Positions 1,036 through 63,667 of a stretch of 64,000 nt of DNA are shown in pieces (position 1 is the stretch's first letter; each line of letters begins with the position of its first letter). This DNA comes from Candidatus Harrisonbacteria bacterium (GTDB lineage Bacteria > Patescibacteriota > Minisyncoccia > UBA6257 > 02-FULL-45-10c). A program made the translations under genes and the position numbers. Below the pieces are notes generated by a model. It was given only the letters and a program-made list of their open reading frames with translations, was not told where the DNA came from and ran no database searches. The stretch spans positions 33,412-97,411 of the forward strand of contig JACPTS010000001.1 of assembly GCA_016192685.1 (NCBI GenBank), in the 5' to 3' direction.

Positions 1036-1172
1036 TTCTCCGTCGCCAAAAACCACGGACTTTAGTCCGTGAATGAAGGCGCGGAGAACCCTCCGAAGCC
1101 TTGGCGAAGGAGGGTTGAGGCTTTGGAGAATTCCGCTAGAAACCCCGGCCTTTAAGGCCGGGGAGCTTCATT
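1036..1172 (-). repeat. structured intergenic repeat, family 2, copy A (reverse orientation of copy at 39854..39987)
   Basis: reverse complement aligns along its whole length with 39854..39987; nested stems (ccgaagc/gcttcgg, ccctcc/ggaggg) and hairpins with compensatory substitutions. Confidence 0.6.
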
Positions 1173-1566
1173 ACTGAAACCTAATCTGGAAATTATACAT
1201 CCCCATAGAACAAAGTCCCCGCATCGTGCCTCGCGCCTGTTCCGGGGTAATGGCAATTTCTTCAATTCCTGATGGCTGAAGAAATTTTTGGTATGAAAGT
1301 TTTGGAATAACTAAACTGGCTGAACAATCAAAAGTCCCATTTGTCTTTACCCGCAAGGTAGTTGGCAGACCGGCTTTCGCGGAAATTAAGCGCGGCGAAT
1401 AACCGCCTTTGGCGGATACATCAATAATTTGTTTGCCGCCCGCGGCAGAAACAGAAGCTGTATCTCCGGCATTAATGCCCTCGCCAGATTTACCGGAAAC
1501 AAACCAGAGCGCTCCTCCTATCAGGAGTCCGCTTATTATAATAGAAATGATAATTGGCTTATCCAT
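1171..1566 (-). CDS. membrane-anchored secreted protein, possibly cupredoxin-like/metal-binding (Cys/Met-rich C-terminus GLCSMGMY)
   Basis: likely start at internal MDKPIII (track ORF 1171..1647 over-extended into the neighbouring gene); N-terminal TM helix; position next to copA and HMA genes. Confidence 0.4.
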   Translation of the reverse strand: MDKPIIISIIISGLLIGGALWFVSGKSGEGINAGDTASVSAAGGKQIIDVSAKGGYSPRLISAKAGLPTTLRVKTNGTFDCSASLVIPKLSYQKFLQPSGIEEIAITPEQARGTMRGLCSMGMYNFQIRFQ

Positions 1567-1573
1567 CCCTTTT

Positions 1574-2590
1574 TTATAAATTAAATAACGGATTAATAAT
1601 TCCAGCCGCGGCAAGCGTGTTAGCAAGATTGAATAAAGCCAGCGCAATCACAATAATTCCGGCGGTTTTAAAAAATATTCCCTTCCACGATTTATGCGCA
1701 ATGTTAAGCGCGCCAAACGAAAGAAGCGCGAGCATTGGTAAGGTGCCAAGCGCGAAGACAGCCATCGTAAGAGCGCCTTTTATAAAACTTCCAGTGGCGA
1801 GCGTGTAAAGTTGTATGGATTGCGTAAATCCGCAGGGCAGAAAGAAGGTTCCTATTCCAACCAACACCGGCGCTAAGTAATGATCGTGCTTGCTCCCGCG
1901 AACAATATGCTTTGATAGCCGCGCAGGAAGCGTAAATTGTAACCTCTTGGCAAAATGAAATATATCAAGCAAATTAATGCCGAGAATCAACATCGCCAAA
2001 GCAACCATAATACCAAGTACAATATTTGCGTTAAGCCCAAGCTGAAAAGCACTTCCGATTGTTCCGATAGCGCCTCCGAGTACAAAAAATCCACCTAATC
2101 TGCCCGCGTGAAAAAGTGTCTGCGTTCGCCAGGTGCCTCCTTCTTTCGCGGAACTTGCGGAAAGGGATAGAACCAATCCTCCAACAACCGCAAGGCAAGT
2201 AGATACCGAAGCGATAAGCCCGATGATAAATGCTGTTCCGTAACTCACATCGGAAGTAGTAATGAAATTAACCAATCCGGCTTTTTGAAGCGCAAGAAAA
2301 CCCGCAATAAACAATAAAGCGATTGGAAAGGCGTAAGCGAAATCTTCCCACCGAGCGTCTTTTCTGAATTGCTCTAATGAAATAGTATAGCCGTAACTTT
2401 TTACCGACTTCGTTAAATCTTCTGCCAGGGCTTCGGGCAGGCCGGTAAAATCTCCGGTTATCGTTACCTGATTATTCGCAAGCGATGCTTTAACCTGACT
2501 GATATTGGGGAATTCTTTAAAAGTTTCTTCAATCAAAAGAGTGCAGGAGGCGCAGTGCATGCCGTTCACATGAAAAATATATGTTTTCAT
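1574..2590 (-). CDS. HMA-domain protein fused to DsbD_2/CcdA-like permease (heavy-metal transport)
   Basis: N-terminal GMHCASC metal-binding motif; membrane domain with TCLAVVGG and FFLPCGF Cys motifs typical of CcdA/DsbD-type transmembrane domains. Confidence 0.55.
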
Positions 2591-19337: not shown

Positions 19338-19369
19338 TAAAACAACTATACCCCTAATTCGTACGAATT
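19338..19369. promoter_or_regulatory. 32-bp perfect palindrome tatacccctaattcgtacgaattaggggtata (paralogue of 39485..39522)
   Basis: perfect dyad symmetry; lies between a terminator and the upstream region of gene 19038..19265. Confidence 0.4.
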
Positions 19370-19388
19370 AGGGGTATAAGGAAAAGAA

Positions 19389-19412
19389 AAAACGGCTCAC
19401 TGAGAGCCGCTT
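19389..19412 (-). terminator. intrinsic terminator overlapping stop of 19397..19861 (near-identical to 18833..18857)
   Basis: hairpin ggctc-tcagt-gagcc + TTTTTT on minus strand. Confidence 0.7.
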
Positions 19413-19861: not shown

Positions 19862-20007
19862 TCTAAACCCTCTCTAAACGAACTAAATATATTATAGTCT
19901 TTAAAAAATAAATAAGCAAATAAAGTAAAAAGGTCGCAAAGCGACCCACATTATTCCACAACCAACATCTCCAAAAAGAAAACTTTAAAAGGTGGTTTGC
20001 TTGTTTG

Positions 20008-20221
20008 TCGTACGGCAACTACGGAGCTTCATCACTCCCAACCAACAACAATATAAAGAAAAACTCGGATAAAAAAGAAGTCGGCATGCTTCATAGAGCA
20101 ACTACGGAGGCGCTAAAAGCTTGTTCTTTTGCGAAGCAAAAGTTTTAGCGCCGAGGCGTAGATGCGCTCCGCAGCTAGAGCGGAGCGACATCGGTGCTCA
20201 TAGAAGTATGCTGACTTCTTA
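20008..20221 (+). repeat. structured intergenic repeat family 1, copy 1 (complete unit about 20079..20221 plus partial upstream duplication)
   Basis: shares gcaactacggag...tttcgcgaagcaaaag...cgaggcgtag core with 37804..37952 and 63517..63667; copy-specific terminal inverted repeat aagaagtc(g/a)gcat(g/a)cttcatagagc. Confidence 0.6.
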
Positions 20222-25618: not shown

Positions 25619-27445
25619 TTAACGGGACCAGTTAATAATTACGTCATCAACCCGCGGCAAACTCGCGCCAGCCGCGTCAAAAAACGCCTTATACCTGAAA
25701 TAACGCTTGTTATTATGGTCAGCCGAACGGACTTTCGCCTGAACATTCGGGCCAGCCGGCGCGTAATAACCTGCGCCAGAGCCATCGGAACCCAAATAAT
25801 TCCACGGGCCGGAACTGCTGTTGGAAGAAGCAATCTGGAATTTCACCGCCGTTCCGGACGGCTGGTTGCCCTGCCACATAATGCTATTTAAAGCCGCGCC
25901 GCCGGAAACGCCGGTATCAAACACGCTGGAAATCAAAATACAATTGCTATCGCAACTGGCCGGGATATATTCCAACCCCTGAGGATGCTTAAACTGCCCG
26001 TTACCGGTGCCGTTAGTCCCCCACTTGGTAACAAAAATCCCGAAACCGTCAAATTTCTGGACACGGTCATTATCGCCGTCGGAAACATAAATATTATTTG
26101 CCTGATCGGCAGTCACGCTTTGCGGTTTATTAAACTGCCCGTTACCGGTGCCGTTGGTTCCCCATTTCAGAAGAAAATTACCATTGGAGTCAAATTTCTG
26201 GATTCTGTCATTCCCAAGATCGGCAACAAAAATATTGTTTAAATTATCAACGCCAACGCCTTGCGGGAATTTAAACTGCCCGTTCCCGGTGCCGTTAGTT
26301 CCCCACTTCAAAAGAAAATTCCCGCTGGAGTCAAATTTCTGGACGCGGTCATTATCACGGTCAGCGACATAAACATTATTGGCGCTATCCACTGCCACAT
26401 CCTGCGGCTTTTTGAATTTTCCGTCACTGGAACCGTTAGAACCCCACTCCAGAAGAAAATTGCCGCTGGAATTGAATTTTTGAATCCGGTCATTATCTAA
26501 ATCAGCGATATAAATATTATTAGCGCTGTCTATCGCAATCCCCTGGGGATGCCCAAATTCTCCGGGGTCATTTCCGCTGGTACCCCACTTCAAAAGAAAA
26601 TTCCCGCTGGAGTCAAATTTCTGGACGCGGTCATTGTCTTTATCCGTAACATAAACATTATTCAGGCTGTCAATCGCCACTCCATACGGTTTTTTAAACT
26701 GCCCGTTACCGGTGCCGTTAGTCCCCCACTTGGTAACAAAAATCCCGAAACCGTCAAATTTCTGGACACGGTCATTATCGCGGTCAGCGACATAAATATT
26801 GACTAAATTATTAGTAACCGGCGTAATAGAGCCGGACGTGGTGGTAAAATCAACATTGGTCTGGGAAGTAAATTTATTATTTACTGAAGTTATCGGGCCT
26901 TCCTGTCCGGCGCCGCCGGACCAATCGGTCTGGCGGAAAACTTCATTTGGCCAGCGAGTTAAATAAACTTCTGACGTAACAATTGGCGAAGAACCGCTGA
27001 TTGACCAACTCGCCGCTCCGGTAATTTTTTGGGTGGAAGGGTCATCATTTAAAGCATTATAAACCGATTCAATATTGCCGCTGGCATTCCGGGAAACATT
27101 TTCAATATAAAAATAAACCGTATAAACATTGTTATTGACGTTCGTCTGCTGGTCACCGCTCTCAATCGCCAGCTGACCGGTAGAAGTGGCGACATAATAA
27201 TGATTAGCTGAACCTTTATTCAAGCCATAAAGATTTTGCCAATTCTTTCCTCCTAAAGCAGCGACATTATCAGCCATGGAATTAATCAAAGACGAAGCAA
27301 TTTCATATTGCTGGGACAGCTGGCTGGAACGGAGCACTAAAAATAAAGCTCCGGAAGCAACTCCAAGCATGGTTACGCCAACGCCTAAAGCAACGACTAG
27401 CTCAATTAAAGATTGGCCGCGAACCGAATTTCTGTCCCAAGACAT
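25619..27445 (-). CDS. pilin-like (type IV prepilin N-terminus) protein with six-bladed NHL-repeat beta-propeller
   Basis: N-terminal GQSLIELVVALGVGV prepilin-type helix; six ~47-aa NHL repeats (DRDNDRVQKFD..G.F...WGT.GTGNGQF..P.GV.VD..NN.YV.D). Confidence 0.6.
   Translation of the reverse strand: MSWDRNSVRGQSLIELVVALGVGVTMLGVASGALFLVLRSSQLSQQYEIASSLINSMADNVAALGGKNWQNLYGLNKGSANHYYVATSTGQLAIESGDQQTNVNNNVYTVYFYIENVSRNASGNIESVYNALNDDPSTQKITGAASWSISGSSPIVTSEVYLTRWPNEVFRQTDWSGGAGQEGPITSVNNKFTSQTNVDFTTTSGSITPVTNNLVNIYVADRDNDRVQKFDGFGIFVTKWGTNGTGNGQFKKPYGVAIDSLNNVYVTDKDNDRVQKFDSSGNFLLKWGTSGNDPGEFGHPQGIAIDSANNIYIADLDNDRIQKFNSSGNFLLEWGSNGSSDGKFKKPQDVAVDSANNVYVADRDNDRVQKFDSSGNFLLKWGTNGTGNGQFKFPQGVGVDNLNNIFVADLGNDRIQKFDSNGNFLLKWGTNGTGNGQFNKPQSVTADQANNIYVSDGDNDRVQKFDGFGIFVTKWGTNGTGNGQFKHPQGLEYIPASCDSNCILISSVFDTGVSGGAALNSIMWQGNQPSGTAVKFQIASSNSSSGPWNYLGSDGSGAGYYAPAGPNVQAKVRSADHNNKRYFRYKAFFDAAGASLPRVDDVIINWSR
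25960..26815. repeat. six near-identical ~141-bp tandem coding repeats (NHL units)
   Basis: first and last units nearly identical at DNA level; explains spurious plus-strand ORFs 25985..26806. Confidence 0.8.
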
Positions 27446-27713: not shown

Positions 27714-28316
27714 TTATCGAAAGCAGGAGAACGTGCAAGAACTGAAACTTTGGGCCCGACCCTGAACCGACGCGGAATTTTGGTTCTCCACACTGCAAAC
27801 TTGGCCTGCAAAAGAGCTTGGTAGCATGATTCGCTCTCCGGCATTGCACTTGCATGTCGGATTATTATAAGGAAAATCTTCAGCCACCACTCCGCAAGTA
27901 CCGACATAAGAGCTGCTCAGCGTGGTAAGTGCCCAGGCCGCGTTGCCGTTCACGTCCGAGGCAGTCAGCACCTTGTTTGCCTCCGGGCTTCCGCCGCGGA
28001 TGCGAAGCTGGCCGTTAACGTCAAGTTTTTGCGAAGGGTCAGCCGCGCCAATGCCGACGTTGCCTGTCATCAGCAAAATAGGAGACGCATCCATCCTCAA
28101 CTTTACATACCCGCCTTGATACGCTGACAGCGAGGCATCATTTGCAACTGAATCCCATGTCAGCGAGACGCGGCCATCCACGTCTGAAGCCGTCCCTTCA
28201 CCCGAAGCAAATCCGCCTATGACAGATAACGTCCGATTTGGATTCGCCGTCCCAATGCCAACATTGCCGCTGGAAACAATTAAGCCGTTAACAGCGCCGC
28301 CGGTGTTTAAAATCAA
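27714..28316 (-). CDS. fibre-like secreted protein, paralogue A (TTG start; GNVGIGT(A/T)NP motif; Cys-rich C-terminus)
   Basis: first 23 codons and ~120 bp upstream identical to paralogue B; upstream ATG-initiated signal peptide lies in the +1 frame. Confidence 0.4.
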   Translation of the reverse strand: MILNTGGAVNGLIVSSGNVGIGTANPNRTLSVIGGFASGEGTASDVDGRVSLTWDSVANDASLSAYQGGYVKLRMDASPILLMTGNVGIGAADPSQKLDVNGQLRIRGGSPEANKVLTASDVNGNAAWALTTLSSSYVGTCGVVAEDFPYNNPTCKCNAGERIMLPSSFAGQVCSVENQNSASVQGRAQSFSSCTFSCFR

Positions 28317-28488
28317 GCCGCCAGTTTTAGACTGGCCGGTAGAGCCGGTATTAAGAGGCGCGGCCGCGTTGCCGCCGGGCGGAGCAACTATAAACCGATA
28401 GCAAAACCACTATGCTAAGAATGATGACTTTTAAGGAATCTTTAATTATGTAGGTCATAAATATCTTAATTATATCATATATTATTTC

Positions 28489-28989
28489 TCATTGGTTGCC
28501 GATCGCCATAACCGTTACCACGCCCGAGTCTAACGGATTGCCGTCATAATTGCCACAGCCGACATAGGCCTTGTCACTAGTAAAAGGATAGAAAATTGTA
28601 CCTCTACCCAGCTGAAACATGATCGAAGCTGCTGCTGTATCAGTTCTCTGGCAGGCACCCGTGACAGCGTAGTTTACATTCCCGAATGGTGTCTTCCAAT
28701 AGACCGAGTAGGAACCTGTACCCTCACGTATGACCCTGAGGACATTGAAAGATTCCCGGATGGCGCAATTAGTGCTTGGGCAGCCAGCGGACGTTCCGTC
28801 AAAGTTCACCCACGCCTTAAAGATATTCTCTTTTGTGATTGTATTCGCGGCAGGCGTAGCGGGCGCAGAGCCCGTGACCTTAACCGCGCCTGAAACCTCT
28901 AAGGCCTGAGTAGGATTTGTTGTCCCAATGCCAACATTGCCGCTGGAAACAATTAAGCCGTTAACAGCGCCGCCGGTGTTTAAAATCAA
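28489..28989 (-). CDS. fibre-like secreted protein, paralogue B (same N-terminal module, different C-terminal domain)
   Basis: as above. Confidence 0.4.
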   Translation of the reverse strand: MILNTGGAVNGLIVSSGNVGIGTTNPTQALEVSGAVKVTGSAPATPAANTITKENIFKAWVNFDGTSAGCPSTNCAIRESFNVLRVIREGTGSYSVYWKTPFGNVNYAVTGACQRTDTAAASIMFQLGRGTIFYPFTSDKAYVGCGNYDGNPLDSGVVTVMAIGNQ

Positions 28990-29165
28990 GCCGCCAGTTT
29001 TAGACTGGCCGGTAGAGCCGGTATTAAGAGGCGCGGCCGCGTTGCCGCCGGGCGGAGCAACTTGTCGGCTCTACCCAGCCGCCTTGCGCCAGCACTAAAT
29101 AAACCGATAGCAAAACCACTATGCTAAGAATGATGACTTTTAAGGAATCTTTGATAAGGTGGAAC
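28990..29165. repeat. duplicated 5' module (copy 2; copy 1 at 28317..28440) with 36-nt indel
   Basis: direct comparison of the two upstream regions. Confidence 0.8.
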
Positions 29166-29186
29166 ATAAATTTAAATAATTACTAA

Positions 29187-35950: not shown

Positions 35951-36265
35951 TTTTTAAAGAAAACTTTCTAGTTATCCCAACCTTATGCGGCCCGAATTTA
36001 ATCGGACAAGCAAATCGAGACTTGAGGCTCCTCGATCAAAACCTTTGCCTGCATTTTTCAATGCAGTATCGTACTCCATCAAATATAAATATTTGATTTT
36101 TGTTTAATTGATCCACGCACAGCTTCCGCTACGCGTGCCTTGTTACGACTTCTTCCATGTCACCGAATCTACCTTTATCCCGCCGAAGCGGAATTTCAGA
36201 TATCCCCGGCTCCCCTGAAGTGACGGGCGGTGAGTACAGGACTCGAGAACGTATTCACCGCGGCG

Positions 36266-36304
<39 letters not shown>

Positions 36305-36701
36305 GCGAGTTTCAGCCTCCAATCTGAACTGGGGCCATTTTTGATGGGATTAGCTCCGCCTTGCGGCTTGGCAACCCATTGTAATGGCCATTGTAGCACG
36401 AGTGTAGCCCAGGGCATCAGAGGGCCATGCGGATTTGACGTCATCCTCTCCTTCCTCCCCCAAAAAGAGGGCAGTCCCCGATGACACATATAACATCAGG
36501 TAAGGGTTGCGCTCGTTACCCCACTTAAGGGAACGTTTCAAAATACGAGCTGACGACAACCATGCAGCACCTGTCCAGCCGTTCCTTGAGAGAACATCCC
36601 ACGTTTCTGCGGGATTTCGTCTGGATTTCAAGCCCTGGTAAGGTTTCTCGCTTACTGTCGAATTGAACCTCATGCTCCACCGCTTGTGCGAGTCCCCGTC
36701 T

Positions 36702-36733
<32 letters not shown>

Positions 36734-37195
36734 TCCCAGGCGGCCTACTTAACGCGTTAGCTTCGCCACCCCGAGGGTCGATACTCGAGATAGCCAGTAG
36801 GCATCGTTTAGGGCGTGGACTACAAGGGTATCTACAATTTTGTTGCTTCGCAAAACTTTTATACTCGCTATGCTATTCTCGCTCATACTGCTGCGCGCTG
36901 GACAAAACTAATTCGCTCATAGCGGAAATTTATCACCCTAGTCGCATTCGCTCCTGGGTATCCCGATAAATTTCCTATTCGCTCAAAGTTTTGTAACCAT
37001 CGCTCCGCAACATTCGCTCAAACAGCATAACTCGTTTAATAATAGTTTTGCGTGACACAGACATTTCTGCTGTGTTCTCTGTGTTGCCATAGAGTTCGGA
37101 CTATATCATTCTCGCGCTTTGAAAAACGAATATCAATCATCTTGATACTCGTAGATCAAAGAGCGAGAATCGGCGTATAGTCTCTGAGGGGTTAA

Positions 37196-37450
37196 TTATT
37201 TTCCTTTTAATTTTTTGAGGTGTTTTTTCACGGTACGATCAACTAATTTAAACTCCGGTTCTTCCAAAATATCATGCGTTGTATATCCATATCTCTTACG
37301 GTCATTGGTTTTCCAAATTGCTTCAATAGACGGCAATCCTCTGCTTTTCAGTTCTTCATTCACGGTTTCTAGAACAGCTTTTAATTTCTTATTTGATTTG
37401 CTTGTGCAAACGATTTCTACAAACCTAAATTTTGAGTCAGGCCTTGACAT
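37196..37450 (-). CDS. intron-encoded small basic protein (84 aa from MSRPDSK), function unknown (no LAGLIDADG/GIY-YIG motif seen)
   Basis: preceded by a perfect Shine-Dalgarno AAGGAGGTG 7 nt upstream of ATG; embedded in the rRNA insertion. Confidence 0.35.
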   Translation of the reverse strand: MSRPDSKFRFVEIVCTSKSNKKLKAVLETVNEELKSRGLPSIEAIWKTNDRKRYGYTTHDILEEPEFKLVDRTVKKHLKKLKGK

Positions 37451-37803
37451 CGTCCACCTCCTTTTTAAATTAACTTCCCTGCTGGTTGTCCGCACCGACG
37501 CGTTTTCACCAGCGATTTGTTTTTGAAATTTCAAAAACAAATCGCTGGTAGCGTCGGATACGCCGGATTTTCCAGCATATAGCCGATTTTACATTCCAGT
37601 GTTGCCACTGAAAGGGACCATATGCGTCTCCGGAAAATTCCGGAGTCACTTCTTTATACCCTAAAGAGAGTGAGATTATTTTTGCGAACCAATAAAATTA
37701 TATTTGCTTCACTTATTTATCTATTTATCGTGCGGCAACATTTATTTTAATTTCTTGCCGAACTGCCGAGTTATCATAGAGAAACTTTATACAATCTAAA
37801 CGA

Positions 37804-37952
37804 GCTCTGCCTGTGTTTCGTGCGGCAACTACGGAGCTCCGAAATGCTTGGCTTTCGCGAAGCGAAAATTTCGGAGCGAGGCGTAGACGCGTTTCGCCGC
37901 AGGAGCGAAACGACGCCGGTGCCGTCAGAAATACAGGCGGAGCGAGTAAAAC
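37804..37952 (+). repeat. structured repeat family 1, copy 2 (inside the rRNA insertion)
   Basis: core identical to copies at 20079..20221 and 63517..63667; own terminal inverted repeat c(t/c)gcctgt(g/a)tttc. Confidence 0.6.
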
Positions 37953-38170
37953 TCATAGACAATTCGGCGGAGCGGCATTTTCAAAATGAATGCCGATGCC
38001 GGTAGACAAATAAGTGAAGCAAATGAGTTCGTAAAAATAACCGAACGATCCTTTTTGCTCCCCACGCTTTCGTGCAATGAGAGTCAGTAATGCGCCAGCC
38101 AAATGCTTTCGCCTTTGGTATTCCCCACGATATCAACGGATTTCACCCCTACACCGTGAGTTCTATTGGC

Positions 38171-38459
38171 CTCTCGCACACTCTAGACAAGTCCCCTCTG
38201 TACAAATGTTTCCACTAAATTGAAATCATTGATTTTGTATCAAGTTCAAGGCGCGAGGAGGAAATCGTAGGGTTACCTACCTTTCCGACTCGCAACGCAG
38301 AAATTGATCAAAATCAAGATTCCCGAAGGGTAAGGAAATTTTTGTCAGCTTCTTCGTTAGTCGTCGCTAGTGTATCTAAAGATACACTTCGCTCCTCCTG
38401 CCTTGAATTTAACTCAAAATTTCCTTATCAATTAGTGAAAATATTTGTACAGAGGGGAC
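38171..38459 (-). other. ~290-nt intervening sequence (IVS) in 16S helix region ~E. coli 650, bounded by a perfect 33-bp inverted repeat
   Basis: gtcccctctgtacaaatgtttccactaaattga ... tcaattagtgaaaatatttgtacagaggggac; flanks align to 16S; core homologous to 61408..61678. Confidence 0.7.
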
Positions 38460-38989
38460 AGCAGTTTTTGCTGCAGCCTCGAAGTTGAGCCCCGAGATTT
38501 AACAGCAAACTTGCTGGTCCTCCTACGCACTCTTTACGCCCAATAAATCCGGATAACGCTTGGAGCCCTCGTATTACCGCGGCTGCTGGCACGAGGTTAG
38601 CAGCTCCTTATTCCTCTGGTACTATCAGCCTTGCGGCTTTCTCCCAGAGAAAAGCAGTTTACAATCCTTAGACCTTCATCCTGCACGCGGCGTCGCTCGA
38701 TCAGGCTTTCGCCCATTGTCGAATATTCTCGACTGCTGCCACCCGTAGGTGTACGAGCCGTGTCTCAGTCTCGTCGTTGGGGAACACCCTCTCAGGCCCC
38801 CTACTGGTCATAGCCTTGGTAGGCCATTACCCTACCAACTAGCTGATCAGACCTAGGCCGCTCCCAAAGCCCCTTGCGGGTTTTAATCCGAATGTTGCAT
38901 CGGATGCTATCGGGCATTACCCCGCCTTTCGGCGAGCTGTGCCCGTCTTTAGGGTACGTACCAAGGTGTTACTAACTCGTTCGCCGCTC

Positions 38990-39075
38990 GCCTTCGGCTC
39001 GGACAAATAACTTTTAACAAATAACTAATAACGAAATTGTTAATAGTTATAAGTTATTTAGTTATTAGTCCGAGC
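38990..39075 (-). other. expanded V1 helix of 16S (~60-nt AT-rich palindromic extension)
   Basis: ggactaataactaaataacttataactattaacaatttcgttattagttatttgttaaaagttatttgtccgag between conserved GCAAGTCG and GGCGAACG. Confidence 0.5.
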
Positions 39076-39448
39076 TAAAAGCTCGCACGACTTGCATGCC
39101 TTATCCACGCCGCCAGCGTTCATCCTGGACCAGGATCAAATCCTCTAAATAAAAGTCAGTTGCACAGAACCCTCGAACGAGTTCCTAGCAACTAACCTTC
39201 GTATTGGGACAACTAGAAAATTTTCTTTTTTACTTGTAATTTTACTAAATTACTAAATTTTATATATTTAGTTATCAAGCCAGCATGTATTATCTTTAAT
39301 TAGTAAAAATAATACACCTATCTTGCGGTTCGTGGTTTTCACCGAGTCAAACTCGGCTTCACACCAGCGGCAAGATAGATGCATTTAGAACCTATCTAGT
39401 AATCTATGAAATTTTTAAATAAAAACTTATTTCATTAAGGTAGTTCTA

Positions 39449-39476: not shown

Positions 39477-39484
39477 GAGCCTAT

Positions 39485-39522
39485 CCCCATACCCCTTATT
39501 CGTACGAATAAGGGGTATGGGG
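39485..39522. promoter_or_regulatory. 38-bp perfect palindrome ccccataccccttattcgtacgaataaggggtatgggg just upstream of the rRNA promoter
   Basis: perfect dyad; paralogue with compensatory changes at 19338..19369. Confidence 0.4.
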
Positions 39523-39525
39523 CAA

Positions 39526-39558
39526 ACAAAAAACTGACAAATGTCAGTTTTTTGTTTT
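39526..39558. terminator. bidirectional intrinsic terminator (A8-ctgacaaatgtcag-T7)
   Basis: hairpin flanked by A-run and T-run; downstream of 39584..39805. Confidence 0.65.
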
Positions 39559-39583
39559 GATGAAAATTCTCGAGAATTTTCTT

Positions 39584-39805
39584 TTAAGCTGCGTTACAAG
39601 TACCGCAGTCCTTGCAGTCAAGTTTAACCGGCACTGAAAGCGTAGCTAAGACTAAAGCGTTCCAATACCAGGCCAGCGGTTCAAGGCCTAATACTAAATT
39701 CTTCAGATAAACCGCTGTCCAGGCCATTACCAAAGACAATGCTCCGGCAGTCCAAAGCGCTTTCCAAAGCAAACATTTCGCAGAATGACTAAGTAAACTT
39801 TTCAT
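39584..39805 (-). CDS. small 2-TM membrane protein with C-terminal CxxCGxC motif (paralogue of 61681..61929)
   Basis: shared block LGLEPLAWYWNALVL and C-terminal C(K/G)(D/N)CG(T/M)C with the paralogue. Confidence 0.45.
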   Translation of the reverse strand: MKSLLSHSAKCLLWKALWTAGALSLVMAWTAVYLKNLVLGLEPLAWYWNALVLATLSVPVKLDCKDCGTCNAA

Positions 39806-39853: not shown

Positions 39854-39987
39854 ATGAAGCTCCACGGCCTTACGGCCGTGGTTTCTCAGCGGAATTCTCC
39901 GAAGCCAACCCTCCTTCGCATAAAGCTTCGGAGGGTTCTCCTCGCCTTCATCCAACGGCCTTACGGCCGTGGTTTTCGGCGAAGGAG
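39854..39987 (+). repeat. structured repeat family 2, copy B
   Basis: see 1036..1172. Confidence 0.6.
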
Positions 39988-40315
39988 AATAAAAAATAAA
40001 AACCTGACCGAAGTCAGGGCAAGCAAATCTCGCGAATTTCTAAAAGTTTCGGATTTTCAATTGTCTTGTCATCCGCGTTATTTTTCTTCCATTGCTCAAA
40101 TTCTTGTTTAGCTTCTGCTAAACTTTGCGCCGATAAACGCTGTTCTTCCCCAAATACCACTCCTCCTCCGCCCGAAAGCAATTTTAATCTGCCAAAATGA
40201 ACCCGGTAAGAAAGAATCATGGCGCTTATCCGCGGTTTACAAACATCACTATCAAAATAGTAATCCGGCTAATCCAACTTGTCAAACAAAAAAATATCCT
40301 ATATAATATCTAAAT

Positions 40316-42824: not shown

Positions 42825-42905
42825 TCTCTGCCTACCGGCATCGGAGTCCGCTTGCCGCTGGAGCGAGCGAACCGCGGTTCTCATAGAAATATACTGGCTG
42901 GTTTT
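42825..42905. repeat. partial copy of repeat family 1 (3' stem module ggagtccgcttgccgctggagcgagcg)
   Basis: matches the 63600..63650 module. Confidence 0.45.
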
Positions 42906-63516: not shown

Positions 63517-63667
63517 AAAGCGGGTAACTATCTTTCGTACGGCAACTACGGAGCTCCGAAAAGATTGGTTTTTCGCGAAGCGAAAATTTTCGGAGCGAGG
63601 CGTAGGAGCCGCTTGCCGCTGGAGCAAGCGGACTCCGGTGCCGATAGGAAGATGGTTACCCGCTTTT
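63517..63667 (+). repeat. structured repeat family 1, copy 3 (complete, with ~21-bp terminal inverted repeats aaagcgggtaac(t/c)atctt)
   Basis: cgtacggcaactacggagctccgaaaag...tttcgcgaagcgaaaattttcggagcgaggcgtag... Confidence 0.65.

Follow-up and report, generated by a model that had tools for sequence, protein, structure and literature searches.

The stretch of DNA analysed here (the window) comprises 64 000 nt of contig JACPTS010000001.1 of Candidatus Harrisonbacteria, a lineage of the candidate phyla radiation (CPR), and carries two copies of a 135-nt repeat element. In the orientation used by an earlier note on this DNA, copy B lies at 39854–39988 on the forward strand and copy A at 1037–1171 on the reverse strand. 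ATAA, which corresponds to the conserved target tetranucleotide considered below, adjoins each copy (39989–39992 for copy B and 1033–1036 for copy A). The earlier note had proposed a highly structured repeat family with two intergenic copies that align end to end in opposite orientation. Both copies are real and lie nearly where it had placed them, with 86–87% identity over an end-to-end alignment. Both are also intergenic, although base 1171 of copy A is shared with the stop codon of the open reading frame (ORF) at 1171–1647 (reverse strand). The description as highly structured holds equally: both strands fold far more stably than shuffled sequences (z ~ −7). The GC content of the element is 0.55, against 0.43 for the window. 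Within the window, exact 14–17-mers of the element occur at these two places only (chance expectation ~0.1–0.4), and a covariance model run with the filters off over all 64 kb returned the two copies only, at 157 and 132 bits, with the next match at 19 bits. That 19-bit match (39481–39616) is caused by a perfect hairpin, ATACCCCTWATTCGTACGAATWAGGGGTAT, followed by an A-rich run; the same combination occurs at two loci, 19348–19393 and 39489–39534, and may be a terminator-type repeat. The 135-nt unit is non-coding and too short for a transposase. A small coding gene (ATG...TAA) within it was ruled out by frame-shifting indels between the copies and by an early stop in copy A.

The element belongs to a wider family. 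A pattern specific to the whole unit matched 112 metagenome contigs from groundwater, sediments and hypersaline mats, and no viral contig; the whole unit was also found in one Nitrospira metagenome-assembled genome (MAG), one Nitrospirales MAG and one Desulfobacteraceae MAG. The 117 matches represent 82 distinct insertion sites and 77 distinct sequences, with unrelated flanks and sharp ends. The further copies on which the earlier note had made its RNA interpretation depend do therefore exist, yet they point to mobile DNA rather than to an RNA gene. On the strand used by that note, every copy begins RTGAAGCT and finishes GGCGAAGGAGA, and the adjoining tetranucleotide, RTAA, is nearly invariant. 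The two ends are not inverted copies of each other, i.e. terminal inverted repeats are absent, and so is a target-site duplication, the left and right flanks being uncorrelated in the 82 distinct insertions. Two types can be recognized: type 1 starts ATGAAG, ends AATAA and includes the window copies and those of Nitrospira; type 2 starts GTGAAG and ends AGTAA. The gene neighbourhoods of the copies are unrelated. A crude ORF census gave 14/13/11/10 for the four configurations of element and flanking genes, i.e. a random orientation, and placed some copies inside ORFs. One contig, L181, joins the left flank of L144 to the right flank of L161 around a single element, by recombination between copies or as an assembly chimera.

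Read on the top (active) strand, which is the complement of the earlier note's orientation (window forward strand for copy A, reverse strand for copy B), the family has the following layout: TTAY / 12–13-nt linker, 4-nt guide, hairpin, ATGAA, box 2, central hairpin, box 1, guide, hairpin, AGCTTCAY. This is the architecture of the IS200/IS605 family, the paradigm of which, IS608 of Helicobacter pylori, inserts 3′ of TTAC; the TTAC stays outside the insertion sequence (IS), 19 nt 5′ of the left hairpin, and the cleavage site on the right, TCAA, is located ~10 nt 3′ of the right hairpin (PMC3201880, PMC5934647). The guides of IS608 lie 5′ of each hairpin foot, with the left cleavage site (CL) TTAC matched to the left guide (GL) AAAG and the right cleavage site (CR) TCAA to the right guide (GR) GAAT; base pairs are formed between A+16 and T−3 and between A+17 and T−4, and the bases A and T 3′ of the left hairpin form triplets (PMC3201880, PMC5934647).

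Natural variation within the family follows the same rule. The tetranucleotide flanking the left end is TTAC or TTAT in the large majority of the 82 sites and in both window copies, and the base after the right cut is T in 69 of the 82. At the left end the cleavage/guide pairs are TTAT/AATA or TTAC/AATG, and at the right end TCAT/GATA or TCAC/GATG. The fourth positions covary: CL4:GL4 is C:G in 47 copies and T:A in 19, with 3 exceptions, and CR4:GR4 is C:G in 48 and T:A in 16. In positions 1–2, guide and cleavage site read AA/TT on the left and GA/TC on the right, and IS608 has the very same bases. In two natural hybrids, which combine a type-1 left end with a type-2 right end, the pairing is kept within each end, and the window copies (TTAT/AAAA and TCAT/GAAA) also obey the rule. 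The element thus resembles IS608 in being inserted 3′ of a tetranucleotide of the TTAC kind, which is not part of the element; in having, on one strand, a subterminal hairpin near each end; in its 4-nt guides 5′ of the hairpin feet, with G1:C2, G2:C1 and G4:C4 complementarity; and in the 'AT' 3′ of the left foot. Unlike IS608, the element has neither tnpA nor tnpB, its target is TTAT or TTAC, and the distance from cut to hairpin foot is 16–17 nt (left) and 8 nt (right), compared with 19 and 10 nt.

The hairpins themselves are supported by covariation. The earlier note had quoted the two flanking hairpins correctly, together with their compensatory changes between the window copies (in hairpin 1 from A-T to C-G, in hairpin 2 the reverse). 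In an alignment of 88 distinct family members fitted to the model, all 16 flanking-hairpin pairs show double changes; overall, the paired cells amount to 95.8% (86% in shuffles, 44–57% in slid controls), and 26 of the 35 pairs have double changes. The two subterminal hairpins share the design CCCCG..CGGGG-YAT and resemble each other more within a copy (identity 0.75) than between copies (0.67). There are also terminal-only derivatives (L143:8714–8747, reverse strand, and L207:5847–5940, forward strand), in which the left-end linker and right-end tail are kept with a single chimeric hairpin between them, ~62 nt when nested inserts are left out, as expected from deletion between two similar hairpins. 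A solo end on L172 was rejected, being a truncated copy with no transposase beside it.

A motif screen of the collected DNA recovered one Y1 transposase, in the metagenome contig L194 (Ga0184629_10025086). This 143-amino-acid TnpA matches Pfam Y1_Tnp with E=2.6e-41; among NCBIfam models it scores 153 bits against the IS200 equivalog (cutoff 55) and 31 bits against the model for REP-associated tyrosine transposases (RAYTs; cutoff 80). The element around it reads TTAC / 19 nt ending in AATG, the hairpin CCCCGCCCGGAAGGGCGGGG, ATGAA, tnpA, AAAG, the same hairpin and CTCTTTAC, and its hairpin, left guide and foot sequence are those of the type-2 small elements. Close homologues of the TnpA number in the thousands, mostly on short contigs. 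One of them, in a Nitrospira IS200 copy, has the same end design (TCAC/..GATG-hairpin and AAAG-hairpin-TTCTTTAC). The type-2 small elements share with the IS200 of L194 and with those of Nitrospira (P0041, L233–L239) the hairpin CCCCGCCC-GGAA-GGGCGGGG, the left guide AATG with TTAC, ATGAA 3′ of the left-end hairpin foot and an 8-nt right-end tail. The IS200 copies differ in carrying the 143-amino-acid Y1 transposase, in their linker, and in having AAAG/TTAC rather than GATG/TCAC as right-end guide and cleavage site. Directly after the right-end TTAC of the L194 IS200 there is a truncated small element (L194:1173–1243) that finishes at a TTAC created in the loop of its own central hairpin, which suggests a tandem insertion and the use of a pseudo right cleavage site.

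Among sister Harrisonbacteria, L251 and L252 (RF1 95% identical) and L249 (92%) keep a 73-amino-acid gene and its upstream region but have no element at the orthologous site. Homology between the window and the sisters stops at ...TATAGCAT, which is the element boundary, and resumes at the terminator AATAAAAA-CCTGAC..GTCAGG; copy B therefore lies 3′ of TTAT in the T-tract of that terminator. For copy A, the intergenic gap of 158 nt equals 135 + 23 nt, and homologous operons in relatives have gaps of 9–36 nt. The element is present in every public contig of this organism, so that a same-species empty site is not available for comparison. Two other candidates were rejected: at L029, where the element lies directly against a truncated HigA-like gene, the junction arose by rearrangement rather than by clean insertion, and a paralogue of the 73-amino-acid gene at 61.7 kb has an unrelated upstream region.

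Taken together, these results make it very probable that the element is a palindrome-associated transposable element (PATE), i.e. a 135-nt, gene-less and non-autonomous derivative of the IS200/IS605 family. Its movement, as single-stranded DNA ('peel and paste'), would depend on a Y1 (HUH) TnpA supplied in trans. On the model of IS608, the transposase would bind at the two subterminal hairpins, and the 4 nt 5′ of each hairpin foot would act as DNA guides, base-pairing with the left cleavage and target site TTAT, outside the element, and with the right cleavage site TCAT, its last four bases. The excised circle would then re-insert 3′ of another TTAT in single-stranded DNA. Mobilization by TnpA in this manner is an inference, and this Harrisonbacteria genome may or may not still encode a matching TnpA; given their 86% identity, the two window copies may be old relics.

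The traits listed for PATEs (PMC3119063) are the following: no inverted terminal repeats; similar palindromes close to the ends; no target duplication; a length too short for a transposase; a longer distance to the palindrome at the 5′ than at the 3′ end; terminal-only deletion derivatives of ~52 bp; and small repeats inserted in the palindromes. All of them are present in this family. As with the PATEs of Haloquadratum walsbyi and Geobacillus stearothermophilus (PMC3119063; PMC10055086), the ends are held in common with IS200/IS605 transposons. The present family differs from those PATEs in its bacterial hosts (CPR/Harrisonbacteria, Nitrospira and Desulfobacteraceae), in belonging to another sequence family, and in its conserved interior, with two linker-pairing boxes and a dispersed GAA/GAA hairpin module. 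A literature search by sequence strings of the element returned only primer noise. The type of element is already known, whilst this family, which Harrisonbacteria share with Nitrospira and with sulfate reducers, seems not to have been reported before.

Several observations weigh against the identification as a PATE moved in the manner of IS608. A tblastn search found no transposase gene in the 64-kb window, and the autonomous partner found in the collected DNA, L194, matches type 2 and not the window's own subtype (CCACGGCC.. hairpins with AAAA and GAAA guides). Most family members have T as the third guide base and the window copies have A, whereas in IS608 this base is an A, which is inserted into the protein. 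The IS608 model gives no explanation for the function of box 1, box 2 or the central hairpin. The comparison with the empty site is between species with a diverged spacer, and the TTAT/ junction is not base-perfect. GC skew is uniformly negative across the window, with no switch between the two copies, and their opposite orientation does not fit a simple bias toward insertion on the lagging-strand template, which IS200/IS605 elements favour (n=2). Finally, the top strand folds better in 70 of 76 copies, partly from RNA tetraloop parameters; this strand asymmetry is weak and dependent on the energy parameters.

The individual parts of the window copies can be assigned on the top strand, where both follow the layout TTAT / TCTCCKTCGCC-N-AAAA, hairpin, ATGAA-GGCGMGGAGAA, central hairpin, box 1, GAAA, hairpin, AGCTTCAT. 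Copy B is read on the reverse strand of the window. Its target and left cleavage tetranucleotide, TTAT (39989–39992; ATAA on the forward strand), lies outside the element in the T-tract of the upstream terminator, whose hairpin is at 40003–40018 and is followed by a T-run. Then come the left-end linker TCTCCTTCGCCG (39977–39988) and the guide AAAA (39973–39976), so that the cut lies 16 nt from the hairpin foot (39973–39988). The left-end subterminal hairpin (IPL; 39952–39972), which is the second hairpin of the earlier note, has one bulged A, and eight of its eight pairs covary in the family. It is followed by ATGAA (39947–39951), by box 2, GGCGAGGAGAA, complementary to the linker (39936–39946), and by the central hairpin CCCTCC-TTC-GC-loop-GC-TTC-GGAGGG (39909–39935), which has a GAA/GAA internal loop on the opposite strand and corresponds to the stem that the earlier note called S2 plus part of S1b. 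Box 1, GCGGAATTCTCCGAAGCC (39889–39906), contains S1a and can pair with the left-end linker in place of box 2. The right end (39854–39885) consists of the guide GAAA (39882–39885), the hairpin IPR (39862–39881; eight of eight pairs covary) and the 8-nt tail AGCTTCAT, with TCAT as its last four bases (39854–39857).

Copy A is read on the forward strand. TTAT (1033–1036) again lies outside the element, and the left end (1037–1088) comprises the linker TCTCCGTCGCCA (1037–1048), the guide AAAA (1049–1052), the hairpin IPL (1053–1072), ATGAA (1073–1077) and box 2, GGCGCGGAGAA (1078–1088). The central hairpin is at 1089–1114, and box 1 (1119–1136) reads CTCCAAAGCC. The right end (1139–1171) holds the guide GAAA (1139–1142), the hairpin IPR (1143–1163) and the tail AGCTTCAT (1164–1171), which terminates in TCAT (1168–1171). 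At 1021–1072 on the reverse strand, the element's hairpin plus TTTTT scans as terminator-like toward a copper-resistance operon, in a scan that as a whole is at chance level. A promoter-like site matching 10 of 12 positions has its −35 in the end of the element and its −10 (TATAAT) in the flank, just upstream of the ORF at 629–1012. Side effects on neighbouring genes, e.g. by this hairpin plus T5 run and the hybrid −35/−10, are a matter of speculation.

The interior is connected to the left end by pairing. The linker pairs with box 2 (helix 4) with double changes in 7 of 11 pairs; between the two window copies, a pair of this helix changes from T-A to G-C. Each of the two boxes is complementary to the linker, with one position covarying in all three, and pairing of box 1 with the 3′ box has one covarying pair. 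The two boxes may bring the ends together.

Besides being a PATE, the element could carry a functional RNA. It is doubtful, though worth stating, that the interior and right end form a transcribed, omega-RNA-like scaffold for a TnpB or IscB acting in trans, or that the 26–28-nt central hairpin is an ultra-small mobile module in its own right. A PATE carrying a functional RNA, such as a scaffold composed of the central hairpin and the right end, is compatible with the identification above and is unlikely on present evidence. In its favour, omega RNAs are frequently encoded by PATEs according to PMC10055086, conservation is higher in the interior (box 1, central hairpin and box 2) than in the transposase-binding hairpins, and the preference for top-strand folding points the same way. 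Nonetheless, neither tnpB nor iscB was seen beside any copy, though no systematic search was made; Rfam has no match; the sole autonomous relative found has tnpA only; the wobble pairs give no strand-specific signal; and the central hairpin is an independent module that stands alone in many phyla.

It is distinctly improbable that the element is a repeat of the REP (repetitive extragenic palindromic) or REPIN type, kept by a domesticated RAYT, rather than an IS-derived PATE. REPs are likewise hairpin repeats handled by Y1 HUH enzymes, and REP/BIME (bacterial interspersed mosaic element) systems share with this family short hairpin repeats that are intergenic and often near terminators. One homologue of the TnpA is labelled 'REP-associated tyrosine transposase' by JGI, the Nitrospira tnpA P0041 is at one conserved locus in several assemblies, and both box 1 and nested modules contain G[T/A]AG motifs. 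However, the associated TnpA falls in the IS200 class on the NCBIfam scores given above (153 vs 31 bits), and in L194 the tnpA lies between left and right ends of the classical kind, with TTAC as the target. The small elements have distinct left and right ends on one strand rather than an inverted REP doublet, and they lack the GTAG-hairpin signature: the 4 nt 5′ of the hairpins are AATR, GATR, AAAA or GAAA, with no conserved GTAG.

The earlier note had pointed to pseudoknot-like nested stems; read in that sense, the element would be a structured RNA, either non-coding or cis-regulatory, whose stems are nested or pseudoknotted. Some features are in keeping with this: both strands are very stable, the helices covary, and in a few copies (L029, L094) the 3′ box has an AAGGAG sequestered in a stem and followed by ATG. 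The block order on which an H-type pseudoknot was proposed (CCGAAGC-CCCTCC-GCTTCGG-GGAGGG) is present in copy B. In copy A the first block, within box 1, is CCAAAGC, which introduces a mismatch into S1. Across the family, S1 (CCGAAGC:GCTTCGG) has no covariation, its two central pairs are broken in 32 of 84 and 54 of 83 members, and its paired fraction equals that of shuffles. GCTTCGG (S1b) and GGAGGG (S2b) share two G, with no loop between them; judged from the sequence and from general pseudoknot geometry, S1 and S2 would be mutually exclusive rather than form an H-type knot. The 5′ TGAAG:CTTCA pairing has no covariation either. In the flanking hairpins, wobble pairs on the earlier note's strand number 43 G.T against 48 A.C and give no indication of a strand-specific G.U excess or of one RNA strand being under selection, and an Rfam search with the element gave no match at the gathering threshold or at E<=10. 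The random orientation relative to genes, the copies inside ORFs, the TTAY flank, the sharp ends at many unrelated sites and the related transposase-bearing IS are all unexpected for an RNA gene. The pseudoknot is thus not upheld, and we regard the RNA interpretation as largely refuted, with very little probability left to it. A host regulatory hairpin cassette (terminator, attenuator or mRNA stabilizer) that merely happens to repeat is scarcely credible, for although copy A offers the hairpin plus T5 run in the gene direction and the 10/12 promoter-like site spanning its end, and copy B lies between a terminator and the next gene, the terminator and promoter scans are at chance level, orientation is random over 54 sites, and the same unit recurs in unrelated phyla and contexts.

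The central hairpin also occurs outside the PATE. Its 22-base core was found in >120 genome contigs from many phyla, most of which have that hairpin alone. As a stand-alone module (L001–L120) it reads CCCTCC-TTCGC-YRAR-GCTTCGG-AGGG, or, on the opposite strand, CCCTCC-GAA-GC-loop-GC-GAA-GGAGGG with a symmetric GAA/GAA internal loop; examples include L006:1909–1934, L007:5456–5481, four in L055, L025:6926–6953 and L113, beside those within the two window copies (39909–39935 and 1089–1114). Sites include the neighbourhood of tRNA 3′ ends and alphaproteobacterial repeat clusters, with a right flank that often begins CARGC, and, by eye from the flanking sequence, an apparent RNase P RNA. In a Minisyncoccia (CPR) MAG, a 27-nt module (L012:5278–5304) lies in-frame in an IF-1-like ORF (infA; ...VQLKN-PPSLEASEG-EKEILAYLGGKMR...), and in the Patescibacteria L004, L009, L011, L028, L032, L034, L046 and L085 the module looks to be inside coding sequence. 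Such modules in CPR coding sequence resemble the Rickettsia palindromic elements (RPEs).

Other small modules are nested in the PATE itself. The central loop can hold a 35-nt module, TCCATCCTCCGTAGCAGGCTACTGCGGAGGACGGG, which is present in L127 and absent from L211, two contigs with the same left flank. A 42-nt module occurs in the GC/AAGC loop of either flanking hairpin and one of ~30 nt in box 1; loci with nested modules are L127 (vs L211), L029:2011–2190, L131, L153, L136 and L226. These may be compared with the SMR-A repeats that target PATE palindromes in Haloquadratum.

The window contains further repeats. The earlier note had suggested kinship with another repeat that it called family 1, but the covariance model of the present element has no match there and the architecture differs, the CGAAG/CTTCG idiom being all that the two have in common. 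Family 1 is a separate repeat of ~115 nt (20001–20209, 37811–37934, 42827–42892 on the reverse strand, and 63528–63653), with a conserved ...GGAGCTCCGAAA..TTTCGGAGCGAGGCGTAG, after which come a hairpin of variable but compensated sequence and GGTGCC. Its GTAG plus hairpin resembles REP, and family 1 may likewise be a mobile element with hairpin ends. The copy at 37811–37934 lies inside the larger of two insertions in the 16S rRNA gene (36101–39151, reverse strand), which are of ~1 kb (~36925–37939) and ~0.3 kb (near 38200–38570). At 25989–26803 there are five tandem copies with a period of 141 nt and 65–76% identity, probably a repeat-domain coding region, and 28214–28462 and 28887–29171 form a local duplication of ~250 nt with 92% identity, 673–709 nt apart.

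The outcome is that a candidate novel structured RNA is replaced by a concrete mobile-element annotation. Such annotation helps, since elements of this sort lead to broken assemblies and to spurious calls of ORFs and of 'structured RNA'. For the mechanism, natural variation over ~80 insertions, hybrids included, recovers the guide/cleavage rule of IS608, and the family offers a ready-made set of retargeted ends. If the central hairpin is indeed a mobile module in its own right, it would enter mobile elements as well as coding sequences and so behave like the RPEs, but across phyla. For the hosts, a non-autonomous IS200/IS605 element has crossed between Candidatus Harrisonbacteria, a CPR organism with a minimal genome, and the Nitrospira and Desulfobacteraceae of groundwater and sediments, a crossing that is relevant to gene flow into CPR genomes.

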